IMG/VR virus record: IMGVR_UViG_3300025889_000161
Span: 1-53,391 of that record
Origin: a virus
Lineage: Duplodnaviria > Caudoviricetes
DNA: 53,391 nt
Strand: one strand, 5' to 3'
Part shown: piece after piece, positions 324 to 17,944 of the stretch
Layout of the letters: the number at the start of each line of letters is the position of its first letter
How positions within the stretch are numbered: position 1 is the first letter of the stretch
Made by a program: the position numbers and the translations under genes
The notes under the pieces: model-generated
Seen by the model: only the letters and a program-made list of their open reading frames with translations
Databases searched by the model: none
What the model was told of the DNA's origin: nothing

Positions 324-3300
324 TTATTTTGTCATCCATTTATATGTATCTTGTACATTTCTATCCAACTGACTTAGTACTGGAAATAAAGCTTTTGTTT
401 TTTTCTCTAATTTAAGCTCTCCTTTTCTTGGACCTCTTACATATCTCTCAGTTGGATCAAATACTAATTGAGAAATAAATTCCCCACTTCTTTGTACCAT
501 AGATATACTAGCGGCAGGTGTTTGTAATATCCTAAGTGCTTCTGATGGATTGGCATAAAACATAACCTCAGAATAATGCCTTCTAGTTATGTAAGCTAAA
601 GTATAATACATTTCTTTATCATCATCATCCGCATCTTCTGCTAATCCAGCCAATATAGTTGAAGCAGTTAAAGATATAGCTATCATACTTAAATCTATTA
701 TTGTTTTTCTTACATTAGCTCTTTCTAAGTCACTTAATTCATCCCATTTTCCACTAATCATAGAAAATTCAAGAGTTTTTAAATCACTAGAAACATTTTT
801 TAAAAATCTTAAAGTTGTAGTATAATAACCCTCCATATCTTTATCTAAGATATCACTAAAATATTTATCTTCTTCTCCTCTTTCATCTTTAAATGCAAAT
901 CTAGCCCCTCTCCATCTTCTTTGTACACCTACAACCATCCATTTTCTAAGCATGAAAATAAATTTACCAGTTGCATATCTTTGTACCATAGCTTGATTAT
1001 TATTATCATAGTTACCATGAAGTTGTTTAATAACTTCTTTAACTTTTCTGGATACTTCTAATTCAAATTCTTGATCTATTTCTATTCCTTCTATAGGTTG
1101 TAATGTACCATCTTTAACTTCATATGCCTCATGTAGAGATATTTCTTTACCGGTAGAAGTTTTAATTTTAATATTATTTAAAATAGCATACATTGCAGTA
1201 CTTTGAATATAATGCTCACCCATATGATTAATAAAATGTCCAGTGTTACTATTAGCTAATCTTTTAATAGTATTATCGTTTGAATATCTAGCTATTATTC
1301 CACTAAAATCTGCAAATGCATCAAATCTTTCTACTAATAAATTAGTTTTAGATGTTGGAACCATGGCTCCAATATCTTTAAGTATATTAGCTGTATCATT
1401 ACCATATAATAATTCAGCTTTACGTATATCTGTACGATTATAAAATTCTCCTGATGTGGATTCTAAAAAATTCTGATATTTACCTTGCATAATATTAACT
1501 GCTCCAGCTAATTTATTAAAGATAAGCATTGTATTACCTGTCCAGCCCATTACAGTATTAGAAATCTTACTTATACTAACACCTTTTATATCTCCCATAT
1601 CAATAGAGGATATACCATATAATCTATCTTGTATAATGGAGTGTAAGGATTTATATGCATTACTTTCAATACCATCTGTTGTTACATAAGACTTTTTTGA
1701 GCTACCTAATGCATTAGTTAAGAATTTACCACCTCTTCTAACTTTAATTGCTCTCCTTCCAGAATAGTTATCTAATACTTCAAGTGTGCCTCCTATTTTA
1801 CTTTTTTCTTCATATTTAGTAACTACATCATAATCCATTAGTGATATACCAACTAAATCAAATGATTGTTGGGACTCTTTCTTAATTTTACCTCTATAGT
1901 GAATAGGTATAGCTTGATTCTCCTTACCTTGTTCATCTACTAATACAGCTTTAAGATTAGGATTAATTTGAACTTCACTACCTTCTCCAAATTCAGTATC
2001 AGTAGTATCTTTTACTACTATATCCCTAACTCCTTCTTTTGCAACAGTAAAAAGACCTTGTTCATATAATCTTTCCATTGTATTTTTTTCAATTGATGGA
2101 AGCTTATAAGTTATTTCATTAATATCTGTTTCTGTACCTGGAGATATTGTTTTACCTGTATATAAAGCTAATCTATAAGAATCTGGAGTTATTGCATCTT
2201 TTTCTGCAGAAGTAGCTGTAAGATGGTCATACATTTTTCTAACAGGATTAGATGTGTCTAAATTCTTTAAAGCTACCCATTGAGGATTAAGATAATTTTC
2301 TTTATTTTTATAATGATTACTTAATTGTTCTTTTGTTGGTTTAGTATTTGTTTCATTATAGAGCTCCCAAAATTCATTTTGAGCAGTAGTCCAAGAAGAT
2401 AAATATTTACCAACTAAATGCCCAGTTTCTTTACCATCAATTTTTTCAATTATACCTTCATATAATTTCTTTTGATTAGATTCTCCCCCTCTATATTCTT
2501 TTAGTTCTGTATGAATTGCATGAGATTCATTTCTTTTAGTTATAAATTTTCTCATTGCATTATAATCCGCAGTATCTAATAACTTAACAGCAATTGCAAT
2601 TAGATTATCATCCTGATTTCTAGGATCAGTTATCCAAGCTTCAGAAGAAGTAATATCTCTAGGAGCATTTCTTAAAATATCCTTTAATTTAACTTTTTCT
2701 TCTTCAGCTATAATCTCTTTATTTTCTAATAACTTCTCTTCAATATATTTATTTTTTGCATTTTGAATATTTAAACCATTTGATTTATAATATTGAGTTG
2801 TTAATGCTCTATTACCTTTACTATTATAAAATTCTTTTTCATATCTTCTAGTGTATTCTCGCTTCATTATTTTAGAATGCGGTAATAATGTTTCAAAAAT
2901 ATATCTATCTTCTACAGCTTCATATTTATTATTAATACTATTTAACTTAGAAGATGCTATTTCTATTTTATTTAATTTATGTTTTAATATATTAGCTAAT
3001 CTCTCATTACCCTCATTTTTAGCTTTAGCAATAGCTTTAGCCATTAATGTTTCTACATCATTAATTAAATCAAATGCTCCAGTAAGTACTCTAATATTGT
3101 TAAGTCTATCTCCATCTATTGGATCTGGAGATTCTAACATTTTAGTTAAGTTGCTAAGTATGACTTCAGATTGATGAGATACTTCATCTGAATATCTAAT
3201 TAATCCTTTTGAATCTTTATGTATTTCTAAAACATTTAATAATTTACCTATTTCTTCTTTAAATGCAGCACCTTTTTTAGACTTTTTATATTTAGCTTTT

Positions 3301-4973
3301 AATATTATAATTCTATCTGTAATTTTTGTAATTAATACATCCATTTCTGCATCCTCATCTGAACTAGCCTCAGAGGTAGACATTGTTTTAGAATTTTGGA
3401 ATACATCAGTAGTAGTTCCAGTCAATTTAGATTTATCTACTTTTTGATTAAGCATTTGTTGAGATAATTCTAATGCTACATTACCATCAATTCCAAATAA
3501 TCCCCCAAAAGCTAGTCTTAATTTATTTAAGAATATTTTTAACCAAGCTTTAAATGGAGATTCCTTTTGTAACTCATATAATTTAGCTCCTTCAATACCT
3601 ATAGCAGTAGTAAGGATTTCTTTATCTAATATATCTCCAGATAACTCTGGATTATTTTTAATAACTTCAGATTCTATTTTAGAGCCATTTAGAAGCTTTC
3701 TACCACGTTTAATAAAGTTATTGGACATTCCCCCTAATAAATCTACAAAGAGATGTCCAAACTCATGTATTACAGTATCTTTTCTTACATAGGTAGGATT
3801 AAGTTCAATTTCTTTACCTTTTACTCTACCATATACATTTGAAGGTAAATCAGCATTCATAGTTACATTAGCATCAAATGTTTGCTGCATTATACTTATT
3901 TTTCTATTTACATCTTCAATAGTATCTAAACCTAAATCAATTGCAGTTTCTCTTTGTTCAGATAAGTTTACCTCGTCTCCAAAACCTAATGCTAATTGAC
4001 CACCTTCAGTTTTACCATCTTCAACATCTTTATCAAATTGAGCATTAGATTCTTTTAATTTAGTCCATTCTATATCTAAATATTCAGGATTAGCTTCTAT
4101 ATTATAGTTAGGTATAATAACTTCTTGACCAAAACTATTTTTTTCTGTTGTAGAAGTTAGTTTAGTAATTATAAAAGGTTGTGCACCATTTGAAGTCCTT
4201 TCATTGAGTTTAGTAATCCATCTATGGTGATCTGTAACAGCACGTAATCTCTGTTCTGGAGTTTGTGTACCACTATAGTTAGTATTCTTAAAGGTGTGGC
4301 TAATAGTTCTTTTTCCATTTATTTTCTTATCTTTAGTGACCCAGCCTTTATCTATAACTAGATCTTTTATCATTCTTAATTGTATTCCTCTTTTATAATT
4401 TTTTTCATTAACAGCAAATTCTTTAGCTTTATGATAATAAATATTATCGTCTTCTTTAGAAAAATCACCATCATTAAATAAAGATTTTACTTTATTTGAA
4501 TCATATACTACATATTCAGTAATAGGTCTTGTTTCATCTCTATTATTTACTGCATAATATTCTTTATCTTTAGATGTATCTAATGTTTCTCTATTATCAT
4601 CTAAATCAACTAATTTTTTTTCTTCTAATGAATTAGCATTTAAAAATAGTGGATATACAGTATCTCCATATATATCTTCTGCAGCACTATAATCGTCTGT
4701 TACAAATATTCCACTATCTGATCTAAAAGTATCAAACTCTTTTATTGAACCATGAAATAATAATAGTGGTTCTCCATTATTATCTTTAACTCCATCTCCA
4801 AACCATTCTTTAAATGTAGGAGTGTAGGTTTTAGCCCATAGTTTTAAAGCTTCTTCTTTATCTGAAATTTCTGGTAAAGCTATTATACTTTCATATAGAT
4901 TAGATTTTTCACCGTTAGGAGCTTCTACTCTATCAATTTCATTACTATCGTTTCTAAATACTTGACAACTCAT
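324..4973 (-). CDS. Large virion cargo/polyvalent protein (N-terminal ADP-ribosyltransferase-like domain, zincin HExxH metallopeptidase domain)
   Basis: 1549 aa adjacent to the virion RNAP. FKEWFG..D.NGEP...FHGS..F..F....GIF.T motif near the N-terminus; HEFGH at 3753-3767; long helical C-terminal region. Confidence 0.75.
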   Translation of the reverse strand: MSCQVFRNDSNEIDRVEAPNGEKSNLYESIIALPEISDKEEALKLWAKTYTPTFKEWFGDGVKDNNGEPLLLFHGSIKEFDTFRSDSGIFVTDDYSAAEDIYGDTVYPLFLNANSLEEKKLVDLDDNRETLDTSKDKEYYAVNNRDETRPITEYVVYDSNKVKSLFNDGDFSKEDDNIYYHKAKEFAVNEKNYKRGIQLRMIKDLVIDKGWVTKDKKINGKRTISHTFKNTNYSGTQTPEQRLRAVTDHHRWITKLNERTSNGAQPFIITKLTSTTEKNSFGQEVIIPNYNIEANPEYLDIEWTKLKESNAQFDKDVEDGKTEGGQLALGFGDEVNLSEQRETAIDLGLDTIEDVNRKISIMQQTFDANVTMNADLPSNVYGRVKGKEIELNPTYVRKDTVIHEFGHLFVDLLGGMSNNFIKRGRKLLNGSKIESEVIKNNPELSGDILDKEILTTAIGIEGAKLYELQKESPFKAWLKIFLNKLRLAFGGLFGIDGNVALELSQQMLNQKVDKSKLTGTTTDVFQNSKTMSTSEASSDEDAEMDVLITKITDRIIILKAKYKKSKKGAAFKEEIGKLLNVLEIHKDSKGLIRYSDEVSHQSEVILSNLTKMLESPDPIDGDRLNNIRVLTGAFDLINDVETLMAKAIAKAKNEGNERLANILKHKLNKIEIASSKLNSINNKYEAVEDRYIFETLLPHSKIMKREYTRRYEKEFYNSKGNRALTTQYYKSNGLNIQNAKNKYIEEKLLENKEIIAEEEKVKLKDILRNAPRDITSSEAWITDPRNQDDNLIAIAVKLLDTADYNAMRKFITKRNESHAIHTELKEYRGGESNQKKLYEGIIEKIDGKETGHLVGKYLSSWTTAQNEFWELYNETNTKPTKEQLSNHYKNKENYLNPQWVALKNLDTSNPVRKMYDHLTATSAEKDAITPDSYRLALYTGKTISPGTETDINEITYKLPSIEKNTMERLYEQGLFTVAKEGVRDIVVKDTTDTEFGEGSEVQINPNLKAVLVDEQGKENQAIPIHYRGKIKKESQQSFDLVGISLMDYDVVTKYEEKSKIGGTLEVLDNYSGRRAIKVRRGGKFLTNALGSSKKSYVTTDGIESNAYKSLHSIIQDRLYGISSIDMGDIKGVSISKISNTVMGWTGNTMLIFNKLAGAVNIMQGKYQNFLESTSGEFYNRTDIRKAELLYGNDTANILKDIGAMVPTSKTNLLVERFDAFADFSGIIARYSNDNTIKRLANSNTGHFINHMGEHYIQSTAMYAILNNIKIKTSTGKEISLHEAYEVKDGTLQPIEGIEIDQEFELEVSRKVKEVIKQLHGNYDNNNQAMVQRYATGKFIFMLRKWMVVGVQRRWRGARFAFKDERGEEDKYFSDILDKDMEGYYTTTLRFLKNVSSDLKTLEFSMISGKWDELSDLERANVRKTIIDLSMIAISLTASTILAGLAEDADDDDKEMYYTLAYITRRHYSEVMFYANPSEALRILQTPAASISMVQRSGEFISQLVFDPTERYVRGPRKGELKLEKKTKALFPVLSQLDRNVQDTYKWMTK

Positions 4974-4974
4974 A

Positions 4975-7900
4975 TTATTTCTTATCTTTATTTTTACAAC
5001 CGTTATCTAATTCACTTAATATATCATCTACCTCATTAGAAATGGTTTTTTTATCTTCTTCAAAAGTACCACTTTTTTCTGTAGTTTCAAAATTAACTGG
5101 AACAATAGATCTATTTTTAATATATAATGCTCCAGGAGGGTCTATATTTATATCCTTAAACTTTTTAGATATTTCTACTCCCATTTTATAGTTATTAGAT
5201 TTAATGATAGACTCTTTATTATCATTTAATGTAAATTCAAATATATCAAATCTTCCAGACTTACTTCCTAACATAGGTATTCTAGCATATACTCCAGCCT
5301 TACCTTCACCTTGTTCAGTATTACCTTCATATTTATATAATGCTTCTACTTTTACCATTGGAAATTGTTTACCTCTAGGATTTTCATAATATAAAGTTCT
5401 AGTTACATATGGTTTAAATATTGGATTTTTATCTTTATCATTTCCTACTTTTAAAGATGGACTAGATATTTCATTTACAGAGAATACATTTTTTTTAGAC
5501 TCTTTTGATTCAAATTCCCCTACTTTTAACACACCTTTATTAGATACTTTTGGTACTACATTATTAAATTTCCAAGCATTTTTCATTACTTGGGGAGTTA
5601 ATTCTTGTAATATATTTTCAGCATTAGACACATCATTTAATTCAGTTCTTAATGTATTAAATGCTTTTTCCCCTAATCCTATTTCATTTATAATTTGATA
5701 TGGTACATATCTCTGTAAAGATGAAATATTATCAGATAATGCTGAAGTATAGAATGAATATACAGCTAAATCCGTAGCTAATTTTTTATCAGTTTCTTTA
5801 TCACTAAGATATAAGGATAACCAATCTTCAGTAATCTTGTTTGTTGTTGTTGCATCTTTACCTTTAGTATTATCTATAAATACATATTCTGGATTATTAT
5901 AAATACTAAATTTAGTATCCAACATATCTATTAGAACATTACTATTATATACTGGATTGTTTTTTAATGCTCTGACTTGTTTAGCTATTGAAGTTGGTCC
6001 TTTAAATAAATCCTCAATAGTACCTTCTTCTCTATCAAAAGCTCCAATTGTAGATAACTTAGCTGCATAAGTTAATTCAAATATTTTATCATATTTTTTA
6101 CTATCACTAGGTTGTTCTCCATATATTTTATAATATATAGTATTAACAACATGTTGCATAACTGGAGTTCCCATTAATGAGTGAGGACCAAATTTATTTA
6201 TGAAATCTGAAATACTATTATTATAATATGCTCCAAGCATAGTATTATCAAATCTTTCTTCCCAATTACCTACTATAGTTCCATTTTCATCTGCTACATC
6301 TCCAACATTCGTTATTAAATTAGATATAATATATGCATATGAAAGTGATCCACTATTACCGTTAGTATCTGCCTTAGATGCTTGATTAATGTCTCCAAGT
6401 ATTTTTGACATATTTTGAGCATGAATAAATAGGTTTAATAATTTAGCTTGTTCTAATTTTTGTTCTGCTGATAAATCAGATAGTTTAATATCTCTATTTT
6501 TAACTATATTATCCATTAAACCTTTTGTTTTAAAACTAGATAAATTAGCTGATTCTAATGAACCTAAACTTGTTGATTTATATATCCCTAATTCTTTATA
6601 AAGTGCAGGTAATGGTTTCTCTGTATTCTTTTCTACTGCTTGACCCTCATTTAAAGCTGTACGTCTAATATATTCTTTAATAGCTGGTTGTCCAATAAAT
6701 GCATTTACATATTGAGGACTAACACCATTTCTAATTAAAAGAAAGGCTGTATTATTAGTTAAGAAGTTAAAGTTAGCTCTACCAATATAATTATCTTTAG
6801 CTGCATCCACAAATGCATTCATATATGCAGAAATAACTTCAGATATATAATATTTATTAGTTACTGTATCTTCTATACTATAACTAGTAATATTCCCATC
6901 TTTATCTTTGTTTATTTTAAGTACTTCAAACTCTTTAACAGTATGATTAGATAAATCTAAATCTCCATTTTCTGTCATATTTCCAAGATCTAATCTTTTT
7001 GAAGAATCTCTTAGAAATAATTTATGTCCTTGAGATATAGCATTATCTCCTTGATGATTAGCTACTTGTCCTACACCACCTTTTGATGTTATAAATTCTC
7101 TACGAATATTCATTTGGAATGTTCCATCATAAATCTCTAAATCAGATAGTTCTTGTCTAGGAAATAATACATCTATTTGATTCTTTAATACTTCTGAATC
7201 TACAGAAGTAATTAATCTTTTATATGAATGTGGTGATTCTAATACTGCTCTATATAAATCTACTCTTCTAGTTTGTAATGCTTTTTCAGTATTTTGATTC
7301 TTTACAGAGCTCTTAGAAAATTCCTCAATAGACGGGATAACTTCTTCTTCTACCAGAATTTCATTAACTATCTCATCAGTATCAGTACTGCCTATAATTT
7401 CTATTATTTTATCTTTTAAATTTTTACTAGAATCTATAAGTGTGGATAATGCATTTTTATCAAATTTATCTAACTTAGCTTCTTTAATTAAATCTTTTAC
7501 ATTATTTCTATTTTCTCTTCTAGTTTTTATATCTTTTATATACTCTTCATATCTATCTTCTATAGTAGAATTAGAATCATCTAAATATTTAACAGTATCT
7601 ATATAATTATATGTAGAACCATCTTCATCAGTTTTCTTAGTTTTAGTTATTTGAGGTAAGATATAATACATCTTATCAATATCAAAATCTGAACCTGTTT
7701 TTGCGGTAATTTCAGAATATAATACAATACTATCTCCGGCATGAGGAGGTAATATACCAACTATTTCTAAACTATCATTAGAAGCTAATTTCTGGTTAGG
7801 AATACGATACCCAATCATTTTTAATGCTGCTGGATCAATTCTTTTAATAATTTCATTAGTAGGTAGTTTTTTAATACTATCCCACTCTCTTCCAAATAAA

Positions 7901-10900
7901 GATGCTAGTTTACTATATGGTAATAAACATTGTCCTGCAGAAAATGTATCATCTGCTTCTACTCTAGGTGGTTTAAGTTTTCTATCATTAGTTAGCCATA
8001 CTATACCATTTTTAGCACTATTCTTTATAGATTCATATGCAACTATATTTTCTCCAGTCTCAAATCCATAATCAGACATTTGTATAGCTGCTCCACCTGG
8101 TTGTTTTATTTTAACAGTTGCACTATTCCATATAGAAGCTATCTTACTCCATATCTTTTTTCTATGAGAAATCATATTATCAATAGGTACACGTTGTTTT
8201 AAAGCTCCTATTATATTGTCTGATTCTCCAGATTTTTCAAATTCTTTTATTAGTTCATCATATACAATATTAATATCTAATTTTCCATCTTTTACATTAA
8301 ATCTTCTATGTAGTTTTTCTAATCCTCTATTAGATAATTCACTATCCATTTCATGGATAGCCTCAATTAATTGCTTACCAGTCATTTTACCATACATGGC
8401 TATTTCATCAATATCAGCAATTATATTTTTTTTAATTTGAGAACCTACTAAAGAATCTTTTTCTAAATTAGTTTTAGATGGTAAATCTTGTTGTAATTTC
8501 CAATTTTTATTAGATAATGTAATTGTATTAAATTTAATTAAATCTGTTAATTGAGTACCTAAATCAGTAGCCTCAATAGCTCCAACTTTAACACCATCTC
8601 CAACTATAAGTTCTGATACACCCTGAGCTTTCATTTGCTCACTAATTCTAGTTAATTGAGGGGAACTAGATACAAGTTCTGGAAATAATACTGCTTGTGA
8701 ATATTTTAGATAAACAGGAGCTTTATTACCATACCCATCATCTACAATTTCAAAATGCATACCTTTCTTAGGTTGCATAGATGTCATTGTTTGAGAAAAT
8801 GCTTTATAATCTTTATATGAAGATTTCTTTTTAGGATCAACAATATTATTAAATGCTTCTTCAAGTTCATCAGTCCATTGACCCATACCTATTTGAATCT
8901 CCTTGAATCTATCCATTGTAATCCAAGCTTGAGCATCTGTTCTATTTACATTCCTATATGGTTTAATAATAGCTTTCAATTCATCTAATTCTCTTTTAGA
9001 TGTAGCTCCTATAAACTTAGCAATTTTTTTTAGACTTTTTTTATCAACTAAAGTTGATTCAAAATTAACATTGGGTGCTACAGCTATATCAAATGTTTCA
9101 TTAACCTTACCTTTAACTATTCTTAAATAATCTCCAGTTGCAGACGTTGCAGGTATTCTTTTTAAGAAATCATCTTGATTTTTATACATTCTAGAATCAC
9201 CAGTAAACATCTTAGCAAATTCTATATTTGCAGCCATTGTATTTAAAGTAAAGTTAGTAGCTATTCTTCTAACTCCCTCTCTAATACTAGGTGCAGATTT
9301 AATATATTTCTCATATGTTTCTGTTGAAAATGAAGTATGTGATACCCCTTTACTATTTACAGTAATAAGTTGATCCATCATCTTATTAGTAGTTGCTTCT
9401 ATTTTATCATTAAGTGTATCAAATACAACTTTTTGTACAGTTTCTCCAAATCCTAAATCTGGAGTTATATTTCCATCTGCATCTTCAACTATATATTCTC
9501 CAGAAATAGTAAAAGGTTTATTATTTTCACTAGAGTTATATAAACCTAATTCATTGGCTAGTTCAGTTCCAGGATTTAAACTTGGAAATGTAGATAGGGT
9601 AAATGCATTACCAGGTACTCTATTACCTTCTTTATCTATCTTATAATGATAATTTAATGTTTGCTTGTCTTCAGGAATTTTATTTTCACCATAAACCTCT
9701 TCCCATGCCTTACGCATAGTATTCATTTCATCAGCTAAGTATCCTACAAATTGTAATACATTATCTCCATTTATTACCATATTAGTAATAGTAGGTAATC
9801 CATCTAAATAGTATACTCTATTTTTATCAGCTAAAGTAAAATATGGAAGTTTACCAGAAAGAACTTTTTCTATTCTAGATGCAAATTCATCTACTTCAGA
9901 TAAATCATTCATAGCTAATCCAGAATCCTCTCCTTGCATTTGCCTACTTAGAAAGAATTGAAGTTTTAATTTTTCTTTATTATCAGCATTTTTTAAATGT
10001 TTTATAAATCTAGAGTTTTTTGTAAAATCACTTTCAATAGATGAAAGATATTCATTACCTTCTTTAATATTTAAAATGGTCTTACTCATAAAATCATGTT
10101 GAGCAAGACTTTGATACATCTTATTATCTGGACCTAATACAGAATTACTAATTAATGTATTTTGAAACCTAGCCTCTAAATCAGATAATTGCTCTAATTT
10201 TGTTTCATTTAAAAATGGTGACTTAATAACTTTATCTTCACTATCTAATTTAGGTGGATTAGATATTAAATATTCTATTGAGTTATCAGAATTTTTAAAT
10301 AAATAACCCATTACATTATTAGAATAAAGACTATTAAGAGCTTCTAATGAAGTTTCTCCTGGTCTTGTATCTAAATACACCTTTAGTGACTCAGTATTCA
10401 TATTAATACCTACTACACTCATTAGAGTCAATGTATCATCTATTAGTTTTGGAGTAATCTCTTTAGCTTTACTTACTTCTAAACTTAATTTATCATATTG
10501 AGCAAGGATTTTTTCAGCAGTAACTTTTTTTAGTAATGGTTTACCTTCATTATCAAAAGATAATAATCTATCTATATAATTAGAATCCCATTTACTTAAT
10601 AATTTAGTAGAATTAGTATACTTATTTGGATCTATATTCCTAACTTCATACCCTATAGTATCTTTATCTGTAGATTTTATATATTCCTTTAACCATTCTA
10701 TTTTAAAATTATCTAATGATCTTACAAATTGAGTACGTTGATTCTCAGAAGATTTTTCTAATAGATTTACTAATTCATTATATTCTTCTCTATATTTTAC
10801 TTGATCTAATAATATATTTTTAAATACTACATATTTATCAGACTCTCCTATAGTATCAGCAGTACTACTTAATATTTCGGATAGATCATTCCAGGTACTA

Positions 10901-11550
10901 GAAAAATCAGCAAATTTTCTTAATCCTAATACAGTACTAGTTCCTTTTTTAGGAAGGAAAGCAACCATTAATTTTGTGCTAACTCTAGCCTTATCTAATG
11001 TACTAATAAGATATGAATCAGTTATGTTTATTCCTTCATTTTTAGTATCTGGATCTTCATCTGGATCTATAGATATTCCTAAACGAATAAGCTTTCTATC
11101 CATTTTTATTTTTAAAGCTTCTAAATTTTCCTGCTTTAATATCTCCTCATAATTATTAGAATAATCAAAAATTCCTTTTTCTTCTAATTGTTTTTTTTGT
11201 TTCTCTATAGATGTCTTTAAATCTTCAGTTGTAATACTAGTAATATCATCAATTAGTTTTTGATTATCTACATCCCATACTGTTAGAAATAATAAATTAT
11301 CTACAAGTTCTTTCACATCATCTCTTGTAAATTTAGATAATGGAGCATCAGTACCTTCAGATAAACTTGATACTAAAGTTGTATCTATATCATTTTCTAA
11401 GAATGCTTTTAATACATCATCTTCATTTTTTAAATGATCAATTTTACCATCTAATGCTATCCATACAAATTCAGCAAGTTGTGAATTATTACCTGCAATT
11501 TTTTCAAAGTCCTTATAAACTTTTAATGTCTTTGGTGCACATTTACTCAT
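4975..11550 (-). CDS. Virion-packaged single-chain DNA-dependent RNA polymerase (phi14:2 gp66-like)
   Basis: 2191 aa. Catalytic GSDFDIDK at 7672-7695, preceded by GYRIPNQ; also TDAQAWIT, KYSQ, GVKVG, LQQD and FVDAAKD motifs typical of crAss-like RNAPs. Confidence 0.93.
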   Translation of the reverse strand: MSKCAPKTLKVYKDFEKIAGNNSQLAEFVWIALDGKIDHLKNEDDVLKAFLENDIDTTLVSSLSEGTDAPLSKFTRDDVKELVDNLLFLTVWDVDNQKLIDDITSITTEDLKTSIEKQKKQLEEKGIFDYSNNYEEILKQENLEALKIKMDRKLIRLGISIDPDEDPDTKNEGINITDSYLISTLDKARVSTKLMVAFLPKKGTSTVLGLRKFADFSSTWNDLSEILSSTADTIGESDKYVVFKNILLDQVKYREEYNELVNLLEKSSENQRTQFVRSLDNFKIEWLKEYIKSTDKDTIGYEVRNIDPNKYTNSTKLLSKWDSNYIDRLLSFDNEGKPLLKKVTAEKILAQYDKLSLEVSKAKEITPKLIDDTLTLMSVVGINMNTESLKVYLDTRPGETSLEALNSLYSNNVMGYLFKNSDNSIEYLISNPPKLDSEDKVIKSPFLNETKLEQLSDLEARFQNTLISNSVLGPDNKMYQSLAQHDFMSKTILNIKEGNEYLSSIESDFTKNSRFIKHLKNADNKEKLKLQFFLSRQMQGEDSGLAMNDLSEVDEFASRIEKVLSGKLPYFTLADKNRVYYLDGLPTITNMVINGDNVLQFVGYLADEMNTMRKAWEEVYGENKIPEDKQTLNYHYKIDKEGNRVPGNAFTLSTFPSLNPGTELANELGLYNSSENNKPFTISGEYIVEDADGNITPDLGFGETVQKVVFDTLNDKIEATTNKMMDQLITVNSKGVSHTSFSTETYEKYIKSAPSIREGVRRIATNFTLNTMAANIEFAKMFTGDSRMYKNQDDFLKRIPATSATGDYLRIVKGKVNETFDIAVAPNVNFESTLVDKKSLKKIAKFIGATSKRELDELKAIIKPYRNVNRTDAQAWITMDRFKEIQIGMGQWTDELEEAFNNIVDPKKKSSYKDYKAFSQTMTSMQPKKGMHFEIVDDGYGNKAPVYLKYSQAVLFPELVSSSPQLTRISEQMKAQGVSELIVGDGVKVGAIEATDLGTQLTDLIKFNTITLSNKNWKLQQDLPSKTNLEKDSLVGSQIKKNIIADIDEIAMYGKMTGKQLIEAIHEMDSELSNRGLEKLHRRFNVKDGKLDINIVYDELIKEFEKSGESDNIIGALKQRVPIDNMISHRKKIWSKIASIWNSATVKIKQPGGAAIQMSDYGFETGENIVAYESIKNSAKNGIVWLTNDRKLKPPRVEADDTFSAGQCLLPYSKLASLFGREWDSIKKLPTNEIIKRIDPAALKMIGYRIPNQKLASNDSLEIVGILPPHAGDSIVLYSEITAKTGSDFDIDKMYYILPQITKTKKTDEDGSTYNYIDTVKYLDDSNSTIEDRYEEYIKDIKTRRENRNNVKDLIKEAKLDKFDKNALSTLIDSSKNLKDKIIEIIGSTDTDEIVNEILVEEEVIPSIEEFSKSSVKNQNTEKALQTRRVDLYRAVLESPHSYKRLITSVDSEVLKNQIDVLFPRQELSDLEIYDGTFQMNIRREFITSKGGVGQVANHQGDNAISQGHKLFLRDSSKRLDLGNMTENGDLDLSNHTVKEFEVLKINKDKDGNITSYSIEDTVTNKYYISEVISAYMNAFVDAAKDNYIGRANFNFLTNNTAFLLIRNGVSPQYVNAFIGQPAIKEYIRRTALNEGQAVEKNTEKPLPALYKELGIYKSTSLGSLESANLSSFKTKGLMDNIVKNRDIKLSDLSAEQKLEQAKLLNLFIHAQNMSKILGDINQASKADTNGNSGSLSYAYIISNLITNVGDVADENGTIVGNWEERFDNTMLGAYYNNSISDFINKFGPHSLMGTPVMQHVVNTIYYKIYGEQPSDSKKYDKIFELTYAAKLSTIGAFDREEGTIEDLFKGPTSIAKQVRALKNNPVYNSNVLIDMLDTKFSIYNNPEYVFIDNTKGKDATTTNKITEDWLSLYLSDKETDKKLATDLAVYSFYTSALSDNISSLQRYVPYQIINEIGLGEKAFNTLRTELNDVSNAENILQELTPQVMKNAWKFNNVVPKVSNKGVLKVGEFESKESKKNVFSVNEISSPSLKVGNDKDKNPIFKPYVTRTLYYENPRGKQFPMVKVEALYKYEGNTEQGEGKAGVYARIPMLGSKSGRFDIFEFTLNDNKESIIKSNNYKMGVEISKKFKDINIDPPGALYIKNRSIVPVNFETTEKSGTFEEDKKTISNEVDDILSELDNGCKNKDKK

Positions 11551-11551
11551 A

Positions 11552-14500
11552 TTAACAATTTGATTTTAATGTATTAATTAATAATGCCTTAGCTTTCTTC
11601 ATAGCTGCTTCTTCTCCAACTAAAGGCTTAAACTTATTAACAGATTGTATAAACTCATCTATTCTTTCTTTAGACAAGAATACACCTAATGTAGAATTTT
11701 TAACATCTGATAAATATGCTTCTACTTTAGAATTAATTTTTTCATTCTCTTCTTTTTTCTTCAAAGCTTCCTTAATTTCTGAAGCTGAGGTACTAGCTTT
11801 AATTGGTTGTCCTGTATCATCTTTAATAACTTCTTTTGGAGATTGCTCTTTTTCTAAAGTAACTAGTTCTGCATCATATTTAGTAATATCATAAACATAA
11901 AGCTTACCTTTACCGTTTAACCATTCTTTTGTTTGTTGATATTTTGGAGTATTATTTTCAAAATCTTCAGATTTTTCTATAGCTTCCCTACTACCAGCTT
12001 CTTTGATTGTCAATAACCCTCTATTAGTTACTAAAAAATCTTTACCACCAATGTTTACAATAGCAGTTTCTCCTACAGGAATATTTATTTGTTTAGCTTG
12101 AGATTCACTTCTTGTAGTAGTTGTTTTAGTCCCAGCTAATATTTTAGCAACATTGTCAGGCTGCATTTGTATTGTTCTTCTTTCTATATCAGCTTTTTGG
12201 GATTCTATTTTATCCTGTTGTGCTGGACTATCAACAATCATTTTATCCGGAATTGCCTTATCTTTTAAATCAATAGTTTCAACTACAGTCCCTTTACTAT
12301 TAGAGTAATCAGAAGATATTTGAAATGTAGGTTGTGCAAATATAATTCCTTTAGGTCCACTAAGACTATTAGTAGTTAATAATTCATTATTTAATAAATG
12401 ATTTTTATATTCTGGATTATTGAAGTTTTTGTAATTAATATTTCTAATCTTTTTTGTTGTTAACCAGTTAATAAAGTTATCTCTAGCTCCATCTGTATTA
12501 TTTGCTAAATTAGACATTGATACTTTATTTTTACCATAAATCATCATATTTTTTTCTCTAAGTAATGGAAACATCTTTTCTTTACTTGAGGCTCCTTCAT
12601 AAACTAATGCATTCAATAAGTCTATAACGGATGATTCTTCTTTATTAGGTAGTGTTTTAATCAATGATGCTATTAATGGACTTGTTAAATCTAATCCAGA
12701 ATCAATTAATAATGTTTTGTTAGCTAATGGATTCTTACTATCCCATATACCATTATATATCTCATATATTAAATTAGCTTCTTCTTCCTTTAAATTAGAT
12801 ACTTGTACCCTTAATGGAAAATATGTACCGTTAGCTGTAGGTATTTTAACAAATATAGCTCCTGGTGAAGCTTCTGGATTTTTAGATAATCCTAAATCTG
12901 GATCATATGTAAACTTTTTATTTGTTTCATCATAACCAGTATATAAGTTACCATCATTACTTCTAACTAAGAATGTAAAGTTATTATTATTTTGCTCTTG
13001 TAATGCAGCTTTTAATTCTACATTATTTTCAGTTCTTTGTACAGATCCAGGACCTTTAGAAGTTATCTTAGAGTATATAGTATTAGTAGGAGAAGATAAT
13101 ATATTTTCAATTATACTTCTTCTAGTTTTAGCCATGGTTGTAGCATATCCTTCACTTTTATTAAAAGAAGGGAGATGCATATACATTTCAATAGGAAAAG
13201 TTAAAAAGCTAAATCCTTGTACATTATCAAATGTAACTTTAATTTTACCATTATCAACTATATTAGATATATAAGCTTCCTTCTCAGTATCAGTTTTTAA
13301 TTTAGAATATTGTTCAATATCTAAATCTTCTATAGTTATGCTAACTTCTTGATTAGTAAATAAATTATCTGGATCTTCTAATATAGTAGCGAGTTGTTCA
13401 TCTCTTTCTTGTTCCTCTGCAGTTTTAGGAGATTCTCCTAGTGTGCCATGCTTCTCTTCATATGATTTAAATCCTTTAGCTTTATCTCCTTGGCTATTAA
13501 ATGAGAACCAAGCTAATGATAAAGGATTACTACTTCTATTAGACTCTTTAGTTTTATCATCATGTTTACTATCAGGAGTATTAGATGGCTCTACATCTAC
13601 TACATCCTTATTAAATACTTGAGTTGCAGATGCTACTATTTCATCCTTCTTTGTTTTAATTGGGTCTTCTTTTACACTAGAGGCTTGCTCTTGTTTAGCA
13701 ACTTCTTTAGCTGCATTTTCAACATCTTGTTTATCTTCTCTAGAAGTTAGCACTCCTTCTGGTGCAAATTGTTTAACAAATTCTTCTGGGGATAATGCAA
13801 CTCCTGATTTAGCACTTAAATCTCCAACAATATACCTACCATCTTTTGTTATACCCATTAACTTTTTAATACTACCATTAGCATCTTCATATAGTTTACC
13901 CACTACTGGAGAGTCTCCTTCTGATTTAACAGGAGTAGTAGCTTCTCTAACTTGTGTATTAACTACAGATTCAACTGCAGCTTTATGTAATTTAGCTCGA
14001 TGCTTTTGTTCACCTTCTTTAGTTAAAGACTTATTAAATTCTTCTTGTAAAGTTTCTAATTTCTTATCACTTTTCTTTAAGGTATCTTTATATTTCTGTA
14101 ATCTAGCAAAGGCAGGTTCTTTTTTTATTCTACCTATAAAGTTATTATACTGATTAAAAGCAGTATTATCCGCAGTTTTATCATATGGATTAGTATCTAA
14201 TGATTCTAGGTTATAAGTAAAAGGTGTTGTTATAAACTCACCTTTAACTCCTTTTTGTACAGGCTTATATCCTGGTGTAATACTAGTATCTACTATATCT
14301 TGAAGTTCATTAGTTGTATCTTGTATCTTATTTAATATACCTTCTCTATATGTTTTAGCAATATCATATTGAGATCTATTACTTAATATACTAGCTATAT
14401 TACTTCTTGATCCATATCTATTATAAACCTTTTCTATTTTACCAATTCTATCTAATAGATTAGTTAATGATTTCTTACCTTCTTCAGTTATTTCTGGATT

Positions 14501-15970
14501 AGATAACATCTCTCTAGTTGATTCTTCTAGATTACCTAGAGTACCCATTTCAATATTACTAATAATCATTCCATCGTTAATACTAATCTCCGCAGCTTCA
14601 GCAGTTTTAATATCATCTTTAGACATAGCCTCATTAATTAAAGCTATTTTTTCATTTGTATTATTAGCACTATTTTTAACATACTCAGCATTAGAAGCCA
14701 TGGTTTCTTGTTGATCAGCATGTCTCTTTTTATATTCTTCCCTAGCTGTTTTATTTAATTTTCCAGATGTTACTTCAGATAGAATACGTTGAGGTCCACC
14801 ACCAAGGAATCCCATCATACCTTCAAGCAATGCTTGATCTGATGTAGCAAATCCTAATAATCTATCTAAAGTATTTTCTGGTAGATCAGAATCTAATCCT
14901 GCATCTTGTTCAGCTCCATATTGAGCTTCCATTTGAATTACATTCTGAACTATTTCTTCTCCTGCTTCTTTAGCTCCTTGTAATACTATATTATCAGCAT
15001 TTGGTGAAATTATATTTTTCCCAAACTCTTTTACTCTATTTCTAAATCCTGGTGCGTTAAGGATATTACGTTGAGCACCTTTGAGTCCTTTTGCTAATCC
15101 ATATAAAGAAAATGCATCAGATAACATCATAGCTCTGTTATTTAATAACATTTCATCTGCTGCTTGTCCTGCTAATTGCCTAGCTTTAGATTCTTCTACA
15201 CCTTGTTTTATTAATGATTCATATGTATTCTCATATGTTTCAATACCCATTATCTTACCTTCAGCATAATTCTGAATAGCACCTGCACCTAATGCAGTAG
15301 CCGCATTAAATCCTGCATCTCCTGCTGCAGCCATTACTTCAGATAATTTAGCTATTCTCATAGCTTTTAATCCTGAACCAATACCTTTTAAACCTGCACC
15401 TACACCTTTAGCAATTGCTCCACCTGGTAATCCAAATCCAACTGCACTATCCAATATACCTTTTACTGATGACCAATAGAACCCAGAATCTCCCCAATCA
15501 AATGTTTCATTATTAGGTCTATAAATAGGCATAGCTTCATCTATCCCTTCTTTAACTTGACCCATTGCTTTAGCTAACCAGTTCTTTTCCCAAGTATCTT
15601 GACCATTTAACCATTTAATATGATTGTCAAAATCAACTATATATGATACATCTTCTACAGCAGTAGCTAAACCTGATGCTATACCACCAACTATACCATT
15701 AAATGCTTGAGCTGTACCAGATTGGTTCTCAGCACGCATTTTATTCACATCTTGTCTAAGTAGGTTAGTTTTATCTAAATCAATATAATCTTCATATTTA
15801 GATAATCTATCTAATCCTAAATCTGCTACAGAATGAGTTCTAGATCCAGAAACTCCAAATCTTCGATCTTGTTCACCACTAAGCTTTAATCTATCTAAAG
15901 CTTCTTTTTTATGAATAGGTAAATTATTTTCATCTAGTTTAGATGGGTTATCTAATGGATCTACTGCCAT
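11552..15970 (-). CDS. Large virion cargo/ejection protein with Gly/Ala-rich hydrophobic N-terminal region and ASCH-like insert near C-terminus
   Basis: 1472 aa directly upstream of the RNAP. GIVGGIASGLA and GFGLPGGAIAKGVGAG segments; ILAGTKTTTTR ASCH-type motif. Confidence 0.7.
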   Translation of the reverse strand: MAVDPLDNPSKLDENNLPIHKKEALDRLKLSGEQDRRFGVSGSRTHSVADLGLDRLSKYEDYIDLDKTNLLRQDVNKMRAENQSGTAQAFNGIVGGIASGLATAVEDVSYIVDFDNHIKWLNGQDTWEKNWLAKAMGQVKEGIDEAMPIYRPNNETFDWGDSGFYWSSVKGILDSAVGFGLPGGAIAKGVGAGLKGIGSGLKAMRIAKLSEVMAAAGDAGFNAATALGAGAIQNYAEGKIMGIETYENTYESLIKQGVEESKARQLAGQAADEMLLNNRAMMLSDAFSLYGLAKGLKGAQRNILNAPGFRNRVKEFGKNIISPNADNIVLQGAKEAGEEIVQNVIQMEAQYGAEQDAGLDSDLPENTLDRLLGFATSDQALLEGMMGFLGGGPQRILSEVTSGKLNKTAREEYKKRHADQQETMASNAEYVKNSANNTNEKIALINEAMSKDDIKTAEAAEISINDGMIISNIEMGTLGNLEESTREMLSNPEITEEGKKSLTNLLDRIGKIEKVYNRYGSRSNIASILSNRSQYDIAKTYREGILNKIQDTTNELQDIVDTSITPGYKPVQKGVKGEFITTPFTYNLESLDTNPYDKTADNTAFNQYNNFIGRIKKEPAFARLQKYKDTLKKSDKKLETLQEEFNKSLTKEGEQKHRAKLHKAAVESVVNTQVREATTPVKSEGDSPVVGKLYEDANGSIKKLMGITKDGRYIVGDLSAKSGVALSPEEFVKQFAPEGVLTSREDKQDVENAAKEVAKQEQASSVKEDPIKTKKDEIVASATQVFNKDVVDVEPSNTPDSKHDDKTKESNRSSNPLSLAWFSFNSQGDKAKGFKSYEEKHGTLGESPKTAEEQERDEQLATILEDPDNLFTNQEVSITIEDLDIEQYSKLKTDTEKEAYISNIVDNGKIKVTFDNVQGFSFLTFPIEMYMHLPSFNKSEGYATTMAKTRRSIIENILSSPTNTIYSKITSKGPGSVQRTENNVELKAALQEQNNNNFTFLVRSNDGNLYTGYDETNKKFTYDPDLGLSKNPEASPGAIFVKIPTANGTYFPLRVQVSNLKEEEANLIYEIYNGIWDSKNPLANKTLLIDSGLDLTSPLIASLIKTLPNKEESSVIDLLNALVYEGASSKEKMFPLLREKNMMIYGKNKVSMSNLANNTDGARDNFINWLTTKKIRNINYKNFNNPEYKNHLLNNELLTTNSLSGPKGIIFAQPTFQISSDYSNSKGTVVETIDLKDKAIPDKMIVDSPAQQDKIESQKADIERRTIQMQPDNVAKILAGTKTTTTRSESQAKQINIPVGETAIVNIGGKDFLVTNRGLLTIKEAGSREAIEKSEDFENNTPKYQQTKEWLNGKGKLYVYDITKYDAELVTLEKEQSPKEVIKDDTGQPIKASTSASEIKEALKKKEENEKINSKVEAYLSDVKNSTLGVFLSKERIDEFIQSVNKFKPLVGEEAAMKKAKALLINTLKSNC

Positions 15971-15976
15971 ATATTA

Positions 15977-17944
15977 TTATTTTAGTATTGCTAAATCTAT
16001 TAATCTTCCAACTGATCCAGCTGTGAGGGATCCGGCTGGGGTTGAGAATCCATCAATATCTCTTTGTTGTATAAGTAAAGATACTGAACCGTCTTCATTA
16101 TTAACTATTTTAAGATCTTGATTTCTAAACTTAGTTTGTTCTTCTCGAGGTAAATAACTTAATATATCTTCAGTTTGATTATAATCTGAATTTTTAGAAA
16201 TAGGTTTTAGATTAGCATATTTATGACTATCTATTAATTGTTGTTTAATAACTGGATCTCCCCCAGAAAGTATATCATATGTTTTTTCAGTAGTTTCCTG
16301 TATAGGTCCACCAATATCTTTAGATTGTATAGTAACACTTTGATATTCTCCCTCAGCATCTTCATATTTAAAATATAATTCTGGACCATTTATTCCGTTA
16401 ATTATTTTAACAGATTGCTTATCTAAAGTTTCTACAGCCTTCTCTAATGGTAAATTATTCTCCGTTGTTGAACCAACTATATCCCAATTAATATCATTAA
16501 TTGCTGATTTAGCTTGATCACCAAAGTACTTTCTAGAGTCAGTAGAACCTTTTGAAGAACTTAATATAATATCTTTAGCTTCAAATATTTCACCTTTAGA
16601 TATATATTCATCTCTATCTTTTTGTAATTTATCAGTATTAACCCCTAGATTTTCTCCTAATACATCTTCCATAAGTGATTGTTTACCTCCTAACTGCATA
16701 CCTATCCATAATCTACGAGTATAGTCTTCATTTGATTCATTAGGTCTTTTTTCATTTCCACCATAAAATGCAGGATTTCTATCCAATACTTGTTTCATTA
16801 ATTCTGGTTTATCTTTAAAATACTCCTTCTTAACATTTATAACTGCCTTCTCATTTGTAGATAATCTTTTTGAAAAGTTATCATTAAGTCTATCTCTTTG
16901 CTCTAGCATATATTCATATTGTCTAGGATCAGTTGTTTTTAGCTCACTTAATTTATTATCATAATCTTCCATTTTAGGATATTCAGCAAAATATCCTTGA
17001 GTTTTACCAGATTGAATAAGAGCAAAAGCTCGTTCTTGTTTCTTTTGTAAGTTTGCGTTAGCAGCTTCATATTGACCAGTAATAGTTCTCTGATCACTAA
17101 CTCTAGGTTTACCAGCATTTACAAATCTCTCAAACATCCATTGATTCTTATCTTTTACATTACCTTCCTTATCCATTAAAGCTTCTGGATTATGTTTTTT
17201 ATAATAATCATAGGTATTAGATTCCTGTCTACCTGCTCCACCTTCTGAATATTGTTGAAATTGATCACCAGCAATATCATATATCTTACTTTCTTTTATT
17301 CCTTTCCAACCTCTTTCAAAATATCTTTTCATATCACCTTCACCAAGGCTATCTAACCATTCTCTTCCGTCAGTACCAATATTTTTAAAGTATTTTTGTT
17401 GCTCAGTTAGTACATCTATTCCAGGTAAAGGAGATTCTTTACCTCTTATAAATTCAGCAGCAAACTTTCTATCTGGACCCTCCTGAGATAAGTATTGATT
17501 ATAAGAATCTAAGAATGCCATATCATTAGGTCTATATAGTTTAAACCCTTTAGGATCTTTTCTATAGTCATCTATTAATTCATCATGCTTCTTTTTAAGA
17601 GCTACACCTTCTCTAATCTTTTGTAATCTAGGATCCACTCTAGATGTCGTTATATATTTATTTATTTCTCTTCTAGTATTAGCATCAGCTAAATCTTTTT
17701 GTGATAATCCTTCTATAAAAGATTTATGCTCTTGCTCTATTGCTTCTAATTGTTCAGAGTCATATTCTGGAAGTGCTATTTCTTTAAGTAATTCACTTTC
17801 ACGTAAATCTAATTCTTGTTGAGATTTATCAGATTGAGCTTGTCTTTGTTGTAATGCTTGATTCATTAACCCAATATTCTCAGGTACAAACTGCGAAACA
17901 TATTGTTGTTGAGCAGGTTGATAATATCTATTTATCTTTGCCAT
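15977..17944 (-). CDS. Virion cargo protein (second gene after muzzle)
   Basis: 655 aa, helical and Cys-free. N-terminal NRYYQPAQQQYVSQFVP; syntenic with crAss cargo genes. Confidence 0.6.
   Translation of the reverse strand: MAKINRYYQPAQQQYVSQFVPENIGLMNQALQQRQAQSDKSQQELDLRESELLKEIALPEYDSEQLEAIEQEHKSFIEGLSQKDLADANTRREINKYITTSRVDPRLQKIREGVALKKKHDELIDDYRKDPKGFKLYRPNDMAFLDSYNQYLSQEGPDRKFAAEFIRGKESPLPGIDVLTEQQKYFKNIGTDGREWLDSLGEGDMKRYFERGWKGIKESKIYDIAGDQFQQYSEGGAGRQESNTYDYYKKHNPEALMDKEGNVKDKNQWMFERFVNAGKPRVSDQRTITGQYEAANANLQKKQERAFALIQSGKTQGYFAEYPKMEDYDNKLSELKTTDPRQYEYMLEQRDRLNDNFSKRLSTNEKAVINVKKEYFKDKPELMKQVLDRNPAFYGGNEKRPNESNEDYTRRLWIGMQLGGKQSLMEDVLGENLGVNTDKLQKDRDEYISKGEIFEAKDIILSSSKGSTDSRKYFGDQAKSAINDINWDIVGSTTENNLPLEKAVETLDKQSVKIINGINGPELYFKYEDAEGEYQSVTIQSKDIGGPIQETTEKTYDILSGGDPVIKQQLIDSHKYANLKPISKNSDYNQTEDILSYLPREEQTKFRNQDLKIVNNEDGSVSLLIQQRDIDGFSTPAGSLTAGSVGRLIDLAILK

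Follow-up and report, generated by a model that had tools for sequence, protein, structure and literature searches.

The Caudoviricetes sequence IMGVR_UViG_3300025889_000161 from IMG/VR (positions 1 to 53,391; the whole stretch of 53,391 nucleotides is hereafter called the window) carries a tight minus-strand operon that encodes, in this order, a muzzle protein, a homolog of cargo protein 1, a 655-amino-acid (aa) protein and three giant proteins, which we term A, R and C (the chain proteins; Table 1), R being a virion RNA polymerase (RNAP). Here we analyze the cysteines (Cys) of these three proteins, as there are only 5 of them in 5212 aa and four of the five lie within 7 residues of the two ends that face one another at each of the A-R and R-C gene junctions. 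These counts and coordinates had been given in a preliminary description of the window, and all of them proved exact on re-check. For brevity, the N-terminal end of a chain protein is called its head and the C-terminal end its tail.

The only internal Cys of the three proteins (Cys1208 of R) is not conserved in the nearest relatives, loci L001 and L003 having no Cys at the equivalent place. The probability that at least 4 of 5 random Cys fall within the 28 junction-facing positions out of 5212 is 3.3e-9 (hypergeometric), a value obtained post hoc, so that the comparative data presented below carry more weight. The five cargo-type proteins of the window (A, R, C, the 655-aa protein and the 826-aa cargo protein 1 homolog) have 6 Cys in 6693 aa (0.09%), compared with 80 in 10,206 aa (0.78%) for the other 33 open reading frames (ORFs) of ≥ 100 aa (Fisher p = 8e-12), and a Cys frequency far under that of the rest of the proteome was found in the relatives as well. 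Both junctions of the window read TAA-T-ATG. The string TAATATGAGT, consisting of the stop, one base, the start and a Ser codon, is common to positions 4970-4980 and 11547-11557; it reflects tight coupling only, and the junction sequences vary among relatives.

The assignment of R to the two-barrel RNAPs of the phi14:2 gp66 type is based on tblastn against phi14:2 (27.7% identity, E 3e-132, 86% of the query covered) and on the match to PDB 6VR4, "DNA-dependent RNA polymerase" (E 1.4e-126); its DFDID motif is called catalytic in the abstract of the phi14:2 preprint (10.1101/2020.03.07.982082). By position, A corresponds to phiCrAss001 gp47 and to the 1797-aa virion protein of phi14:2. Profile searches assigned A to no Pfam or PHROG family and R to no PHROG family. 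Homologs of A and C flank R in the related loci as they do in the window, and the homology to phi14:2 gp66, the DFDxD motif and the synteny with the muzzle protein and crAss_CARG1 identify the block as the RNAP cargo block of crAss-like phages. Packaging in virions is known for relatives, by mass spectrometry for phiCrAss001 (available text of PMC10172136), and the GenBank record of phi14:2 notes virion status from tandem mass spectrometry proteomics for all three of its chain proteins.

Among the neighboring genes, the muzzle protein was recognized by its matches to PF25731 (crAss_MUZ, E 7.6e-136) and PF25729, by which the window is a virion module of a crAss-like phage. The 826-aa protein (PF25725, crAss_CARG1, E 4.5e-12) has a single, internal Cys (263), and the 655-aa protein in the cargo protein 2 position is Cys-free, as are its positional homologs in related loci; its junctions, which are without Cys, served as control. 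C has an ART-PolyVal domain at residues 64-175 (PF18760, E 3.2e-7, 31.6 bits, just above the cut-off of 31.2) and an HEFGH zincin-type motif at residue 403, i.e., it joins an ADP-ribosyltransferase domain of the "polyvalent protein" type and a protease-type motif in one protein. Judging by these domains, C may serve as an effector as well as the protease proposed for the processing of fused polyproteins. The window DNA had no near-identical match among GenBank phages.

Table 1. Coordinates of the genes, residues and motifs discussed, in the window and in related loci (L numbers); tail, C-terminal end; head, N-terminal end
Feature	Sequence	Position	Strand	Remarks
Cargo protein A, 1472 aa	Window	11552..15970	minus	BLAST relatives in 80 loci
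Virion RNAP R, 2191 aa	Window	4975..11550	minus	two-barrel RNAP, phi14:2 gp66 type
Cargo protein C, 1549 aa	Window	324..4973	minus	
Cys1472 of A (A tail thiol)	Window	11555..11557	minus	C-terminal residue, only Cys of A
Cys4 of R (R head thiol)	Window	11539..11541	minus	faces A tail
Cys1208 of R (in GQCLL)	Window	7927..7929	minus	only internal Cys of R; coordinate computed from gene start
Cys2185 of R (R tail thiol)	Window	4996..4998	minus	seventh residue from C-terminus, faces C head
Cys3 of C (C head thiol)	Window	4965..4967	minus	only Cys of C, faces R tail
DFDID catalytic-type motif of R, residues 1288-1292	Window	7675..7689	minus	coordinate computed from gene start
655-aa protein, cargo protein 2 position	Window	15977..17944	minus	0 Cys
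826-aa cargo protein 1 homolog	Window	17947..20427	minus	PF25725
Muzzle protein, 1483 aa	Window	20525..24976	minus	5 Cys
Ferritin-like gene between R and C	L023	15487-15984		
Ferritin-like gene between R and C	L025	8017-8520		
Ferritin-like gene between R and C	L027	17830-18333		
Ferritin-like gene between R and C	L042	8327-8821		
Ferritin-like gene between R and C	L058	10447-10929		
Ferritin-like gene between R and C	L059	14483-14974		
Ferritin-like gene between A and R	L038	7770-8264		
GIY-YIG endonuclease ORF	L043	14353-15114		at R-C junction, overlapping R end
Interrupted RNAP	L048	7574-19568		
Separate first 272 aa of split protein	L079	713-1531		no Cys at either end
Remaining 5472 aa of split protein	L079	1604-18022		no Cys at either end
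Start region of gp33 (crAss002)	L083	16788-16892		annotated start upstream of internal Met-Ser-Cys
RNAP not Cys-poor, phiCrAss001-like	L114	4062-13079		
RNAP not Cys-poor, phiCrAss001-like	L118	4142-13126		
RNAP not Cys-poor, phiCrAss001-like	L133	4607-13816		
RNAP not Cys-poor, phiCrAss001-like	L138	4547-13834		
RNAP not Cys-poor, phiCrAss001-like	L169	1538-11560		

Facing cysteines in related phages

Viral contigs were scanned with R, which gave 104 pattern-matching stretches, 97 of them confirmed, and the best 80 of these 97 loci, with RNAPs 22-43% identical to R, were analyzed. Clustering of the RNAP core at 90% identity yielded 60 representative loci in addition to the window; L050 and L066, which are without an RNAP ORF, were excluded from the clustering. 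A further comparison set consisted of 12 extra loci and 11 GenBank phages (phi14:2, phiCrAss001, DAC15, crAss002 and Fpv1 among them). A junction was scored as paired if the upstream protein had a Cys among its last 10 aa and the downstream protein had one among its first 15 aa. ORFs were called from the first ATG, by which some head positions were shifted, and were re-called with TAG as a sense codon in eight loci that need it for long frames (L044, L046, L047, L054, L055, L056, L065 and L073); L089 and L090 likewise give long frames only with TAG as sense. The annotated GenBank proteins of cr113_1 and cr56_1 have 7-73 in-frame stops under translation table 11, and a reassignment of TAG in crAss-like phages, matching these loci, is reported in the available text of PMC7886860.

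Among consecutive chain ORFs of the 60 representatives, both Cys were present at 81 of 88 junctions, one at three and none at four, and the window adds two paired junctions out of two. No Cys was found at the outer ends of the chain (0/31 N-termini of A, 0/57 C-termini of C), and all but 2 of the 61 upstream control junctions were free of terminal Cys; the two exceptions belong to the doubtful loci L060 and L065, in which the upstream control ORF is probably an unrecognized chain member. The pairing rule is real, conserved and specific across crAss-like phages: as the preliminary description had anticipated, terminal Cys are conserved and paired at split junctions in nearly all homologs and are gone in fused orthologs. 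Their positions vary little, the tail Cys being the last residue in 28, the second-last in 30 and the third-last in 13 of 83 junctions (last or second-last in 58) and the head Cys, counted from the nearest Met, residue 3 in 51 and residue 4 in 21 (together 72/83), with 0-8 residues following the tail Cys and 2-6 preceding the head Cys.

The 151 chain proteins (314,697 aa) contain 220 Cys, 178 terminal and 42 internal, which corresponds to an internal rate of 0.013%, compared with 0.31% for the remaining plus-strand ORFs of these loci. Alignments of 150-aa terminal stretches (33 A tails, mean column identity 15%; 33 R heads, 22%) each had the Cys as the sole invariant column. Strong purifying selection on the Cys is shown, as judged from the homologs compared. 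In the phiCrAss001-like lineages L114, L118, L133, L138 and L169, the RNAP has 12-40 Cys in ~3000 aa (totals of 21 in both L114 and L118 and 40 in L169) and still retains those of head and tail, hence internal suppression and terminal retention are separable traits.

Several observations place the rule at the level of proteins. Terminal Cys are encoded by both codons (TGT 149, TGC 20; 445:106 for all Cys in these ORFs), the gaps between partner genes range from -29 to +58 nucleotides (nt) and cover all three relative frames, and the pairs survive with inserted genes of 0.36-1.7 kb between the partners; an explanation by a DNA motif was rejected on account of both codons, all frames and variable gaps. 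In phiCrAss001, A (gp47, 2341 aa, with 2339 as its sole Cys) is on the strand opposite to R (gp50, 2412 aa, Cys5, Cys1334 and Cys2404) and C (gp49, 1349 aa, sole Cys5), and DAC15 has the same arrangement, the sole Cys of its A being residue 2220 of 2222. From these two phages it was predicted that loci arranged alike would have a convergent gene ending in Cys; seven such loci were scanned, and all five with a minus-strand ORF of ≥ 500 aa have one (L075, L114, L118, L123 and L169). Since the Cys is kept in spite of the opposite strand of gene A, it belongs to the proteins, and so does the A-R-C order, which does not depend on the order of the genes. The preliminary description had placed the links "in gene order", of which the order of the proteins stands and that of the genes has to be given up.

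The rule extends to phages of several named families. In the marine phi14:2 (Steigviridae), the three proteins have 1797 aa (Cys1797), 2180 aa (Cys3 and Cys2179) and 1421 aa (Cys3), and in phiCrAss001 and DAC15 (Steigviridae, gut) the rule holds with the opposite-strand A just described. In crAss002 (Intestiviridae), the sole Cys of gp32 is residue 2019 of 2020, and gp33 is a fusion of R and C. The gut Suoliviridae cr50_1, cr55_1, cr10_1, cr113_1, cr56_1 and cr118_1 have A fused to R, a tail Cys 2-11 residues from the end and a head Cys of C at positions 3-6, while the Flavobacterium phage Fpv1 has a 4401-aa protein with one Cys (4400), followed by one of 1596 aa with Cys3 and Cys1461. The annotated start of crAss002 gp33 lies 32 codons upstream of an internal Met-Ser-Cys (33-35), and by the terminal-Cys rule this internal Met is probably the true start. 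Similarly, a Met-x-Cys, whose Met is probably the true start, occurs a few codons downstream of the first-ATG starts in L015, L023, L032 and L045. For annotation, a terminal Cys marks true termini and start codons and separates real gene splits from assembly errors in giant genes.

Split, fused and interrupted forms

Fusion removes the pair at the fused joint and leaves the other in place. In A+R fusions, no Cys is left but that of the R tail and that of the C head. Examples are L005, where the sole Cys of a 3935-aa fusion is residue 3932 and C has Cys3, and L019, with residue 5321 of 5322 as the sole Cys of the fusion and Cys4 in C; L024, L049, L064, Fpv1 and the six gut Suoliviridae are of the same type. 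In R+C fusions (L013, L014 and crAss002), only the A tail and R head Cys remain. Fully fused proteins of 4231-5639 aa without any Cys were found in L062, L063, L068, L070, L072, L076, L077, L079, L080, L096 and L102. The only two Cys in > 5000 aa are those of the two facing ends in L005, L019, L024, L049 and L155, and an extra split comes with an extra pair, as in L078, where each of the three joints between pieces of 1803, 3406, 754 and at least 1720 aa carries Cys. The fused L013 has a 40-aa Cys-free linker in place of the 23-aa tail and the 42-aa head of L020, its split relative; no similarity between them was detectable on alignment, so that the exact fusion point cannot be mapped residue by residue.

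A FastTree phylogeny of the RNAP core was built from 81 rows, i.e., 61 representatives (the window among them), 9 further viral contigs and 11 GenBank phages. The A-R junction (45 split, 24 fused) changed state at least 7 times, with 6 independent contrasts on supported branches (sign test, median p 0.031), and the R-C junction (68 split, 10 fused) at least 3 times, with 3 such contrasts (median p 0.25); the number of events is approximate, as FastTree is unreliable for long branches, and the 50:50 null of the sign test understates the case. In all 9 independent contrasts the Cys pair goes with the split state, none being reversed, with L038, conservatively scored as "no pair" and drawn in some random pairings, as a partial exception. 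Close relatives illustrate the same: L103, with three genes and four terminal Cys, adjoins the Cys-free fully fused clade, the split L078 adjoins the A+R-fused L166, and the split L020 and L053 adjoin the R+C-fused L013 and L014.

Some junctions are occupied by other genes. Ferritin-like genes of 160-167 aa lie exactly at cargo gene junctions inside the operon in 7 loci (Table 1), two of which were scanned against PF00210 (E 7e-14 and 2.5e-19). They carry 2-5 Cys and are therefore not Cys-suppressed; a connection with redox chemistry, of thiols or of iron, is no more than a guess. The GIY-YIG endonuclease ORF of L043 (PF01541, E 3e-8) has a C-terminus (...IKRIKNCN) that resembles the R tail (...TRIKECN), as if the insertion had copied the tail.

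Possible roles of the facing cysteines

On comparative grounds, the fusion series supports the earlier interpretation in part, namely a reading in which facing Cys form a functional pair and replace, between A and R and between R and C, the peptide bond found in fused orthologs. The counts, with two thiols at a junction, both lost on fusion, and none at the outer ends, agree with a linear chain. The best explanation, which we favor without being firmly convinced, is that A, R and C are held head-to-tail by one inter-chain disulfide per junction. The three would be Cys-suppressed proteins ejected from the capsid, with a single thiol at every end facing the next chain member. A disulfide in the mature virion would join each tail Cys to the head Cys of the following protein, giving a covalent thread A-S-S-R-S-S-C, the functional equivalent of the single ~5500-aa polyprotein of other crAss-like phages. 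The bond would form after release from the cell, the chain would be threaded sequentially through the tail, and the reducing cytoplasm of the host would then cut the joints and free the three proteins. From the comparison of sequences we infer the disulfide chemistry, the formation of the bond after release, the sequential threading, the reductive release and any switch-on of the RNAP.

The position of the Cys agrees with such a path, since with mostly 0-3 residues to the C-terminal end and 2-4 to the N-terminal end a joint would be almost without side stubs and could pass a narrow tail channel. According to the available text of PMC10172136, the phiCrAss001 virion contains disulfides between subunits, tail constrictions of < 50 Å require its cargo to unfold in part, and the order of extrusion is probably set by interactions among the cargo proteins. 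When the A tail (90 aa) and the R head (150 aa) were modeled as a complex, the scores were 0.03 and 0.27 relative to a mark of 0.32, which counts for neither side. In the AlphaFold2 model of the R head (150 aa, 33-row alignment), residues 1-5, including Cys4, form a coil before helices, at a mean predicted local distance difference test (pLDDT) value of 62.7, a confidence too low to build on. A wider proposal, which we offer tentatively and with less confidence than the bond itself, is that of a redox-cleavable pseudo-polyprotein, in which disulfide and peptide bond would be evolutionarily interchangeable, the exit order fixed, and the polymerase freed, perhaps also activated, by host thiol reductases, the ferritin-like genes at the junctions maybe belonging to the same chemistry.

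Several points weigh against a disulfide-linked chain. The evidence for the bond is entirely comparative, and the formal phylogenetic tests (p 0.031 and 0.25) are weak because there were few transitions. Virions assemble in a reducing cytoplasm, so a bond could form only later, and the surroundings of gut phages are anoxic. In many phages, A tails resemble R tails (e.g., ...KKCK), by which the pairing of tails with heads may not follow a strict A-R-C order, and a circular R together with an A-C pair would fit the counts equally well. The fused polyprotein is described as "likely cleaved" in the available part of the preprint by Drobysheva (10.1101/2020.03.07.982082); if cleavage precedes ejection, covalent continuity is unneeded in the phages with fused polyproteins. 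Four loci also deviate from the rule. In L038, the Cys of A is 18 residues from the end and the ferritin-like gene is inserted before R. L079 is split into 272 and 5472 aa without Cys, L060 has breaks without Cys on an old low-quality contig containing an N, and in L048 the RNAP is interrupted by ~4.3 kb, the Cys ending the homologous part 287 aa before the called stop.

Concerning two of these loci, the first 272 aa of L079 form a separate ORF located 72 nt upstream of the rest, within the fully fused Cys-free clade, and this split is either an assembly error or a genuine breach of the rule. In L048, the tail-like "...EDIENC" is followed by an in-frame extension of 287 aa, a 1161-aa ORF (no Pfam family) and the rest of the RNAP, which starts with Met-Gly-Cys; the interruption may be a mobile insertion at a new split point. 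Among the non-representatives, L002 and L054 have internal breaks without Cys, which are probably assembly frameshifts, their near-identical sisters L001 and L044 being intact. Three other candidate exceptions were dropped: L065 has the C head ("MNKYC"), an in-frame stop further on having made the ORF call start late; the "orphan" R head of L075 has its partner A on the opposite strand; and the apparent partner at the L049 "junction" is a Cys-free upstream neighbor and no member of the chain.

Other explanations of the facing Cys have to be compared with the same data. The Cys could share a metal ion (zinc-hook-like, or an iron or copper bridge) in the same chain, which would come apart once the metal is lost. 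Metals are commonly bound by Cys, any link between two thiols would account equally well for the pairing and fusion data, and the ferritin-like genes at cargo junctions in 7 loci hint at nearby iron chemistry, but with one Cys per terminus and no second conserved ligand, no CxxC and no conserved His, such a two-thiol site would be a weak tether for a 600-kDa chain, and we regard it as unlikely. For flexible ends with one thiol each, a disulfide is the simplest chemistry; a metal would have to be held by additional ligands, of which none is conserved. The terminal Cys might instead not pair with one another and bind a capsid, portal or tail component, a cofactor or a modification, link two copies of the same protein or act as a redox sensor. 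The several structural disulfides of the phiCrAss001 virion show that Cys-bearing partners exist; against this, terminal Cys come two per junction and vanish together on fusion, the outer ends are Cys-free, five loci (L005, L019, L024, L049 and L155) keep just the two facing ones, and cargo proteins 1 and 2 are Cys-free in related loci, all of which makes a different partner quite improbable in our view.

Protein ligation or splicing (intein-like or by a transpeptidase) that would produce a true polyprotein is suggested by the Cys at the upstream end and just past the downstream start, which resemble intein-flanking residues, as in split inteins with a Cys at the end of one product and another near the start of the next, and by the frequency of inteins and introns in crAss-like phages (available text of PMC7886860). 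The flanks, however, are far too short to accommodate a HINT fold, the Pfam search found no intein family in A, R or C, and fused orthologs are without a Cys at the joint, whereas spliced exteins would retain the +1 Cys. Split inteins were rejected on the first two of these grounds, and ligation in general is given very little weight. As to chance, a DNA signal for translational coupling or an artefact of ORF calling, TAATATGAGT does occur at both window junctions and the first-ATG caller does shift some heads, but the pattern is conserved at 22-43% identity, with both codons, all frames and variable gaps, survives inserted genes and an opposite-strand gene A, and has the low hypergeometric probability given above for the window, so that we consider this practically negligible.

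If the disulfide-linked chain is true, virions of phi14:2 or phiCrAss001 should yield a species of ~600 kDa on non-reducing gels, and the single thiol at each facing end offers a concrete and testable molecular handle. The known Cys suppression of ejected phage proteins is refined in that the surviving few Cys are the informative ones. Crassvirales include the most abundant viruses of the human gut.

Relation to known systems

A, R and C are members of the crAss-like cargo block, to which gp65, gp66 (RNAP, PDB 6VR4) and gp67 of phi14:2 and gp47, gp49 and gp50 of phiCrAss001 belong. In the available parts of 10.1101/2020.03.07.982082 and PMC10172136, this block is described as virion-packaged, as one polyprotein in some phages, and with a neighbor of the RNAP that has a zincin-like protease domain. 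The words cysteine and disulfide are absent from the available text of the former and the word "cysteine" from that of PMC7886860, while the mentions of disulfides in that of PMC10172136 are limited to gp57 and tail proteins, with none for cargo. Full-text literature searches, with most subscription papers and supplements outside their scope, led only to PMC10172136 and PMC11445570 and found no description of terminal-Cys pairing.

The N4-like phages (Schitoviridae) likewise have a giant virion RNAP and two co-ejected partner proteins that are almost Cys-free. The available text of PMC11445570 gives 0.00075% Cys for the Schitoviridae RNAP homologs vs. 0.865% in proteomes, explains it by passage through the periplasm and reports no retained Cys, whereas the crAss-like chain keeps one per junction-facing end. 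In being a single chain, the N4 virion RNAP resembles the crAss-like polyproteins that are fully fused and Cys-free. The structural disulfides of phiCrAss001 (in the gp57 dimer and in tail hub and ring proteins) exist even in anaerobically grown phage, according to the available text of PMC10172136. They fix stable parts, while the proposed cargo disulfides would tie together mobile proteins that exit and then separate. As in disulfide-linked hetero-chains released by reduction, each partner has one Cys at the contact (at 81 of 88 split junctions), and fused junctions have none.

A mechanistic analogy is found in two-chain AB toxins, in which one inter-chain disulfide holds the chains together, passage through a narrow pore occurs in the unfolded state and cytosolic reduction separates the chains. 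This is an analogy of mechanism only and implies no homology, as neither the proteins nor the organisms are related, and the toxin chains arise by cleavage of one chain. The disulfide-chain reading adds to two known themes, Cys-free ejection proteins on the one hand and disulfide-held chains that part after translocation on the other.

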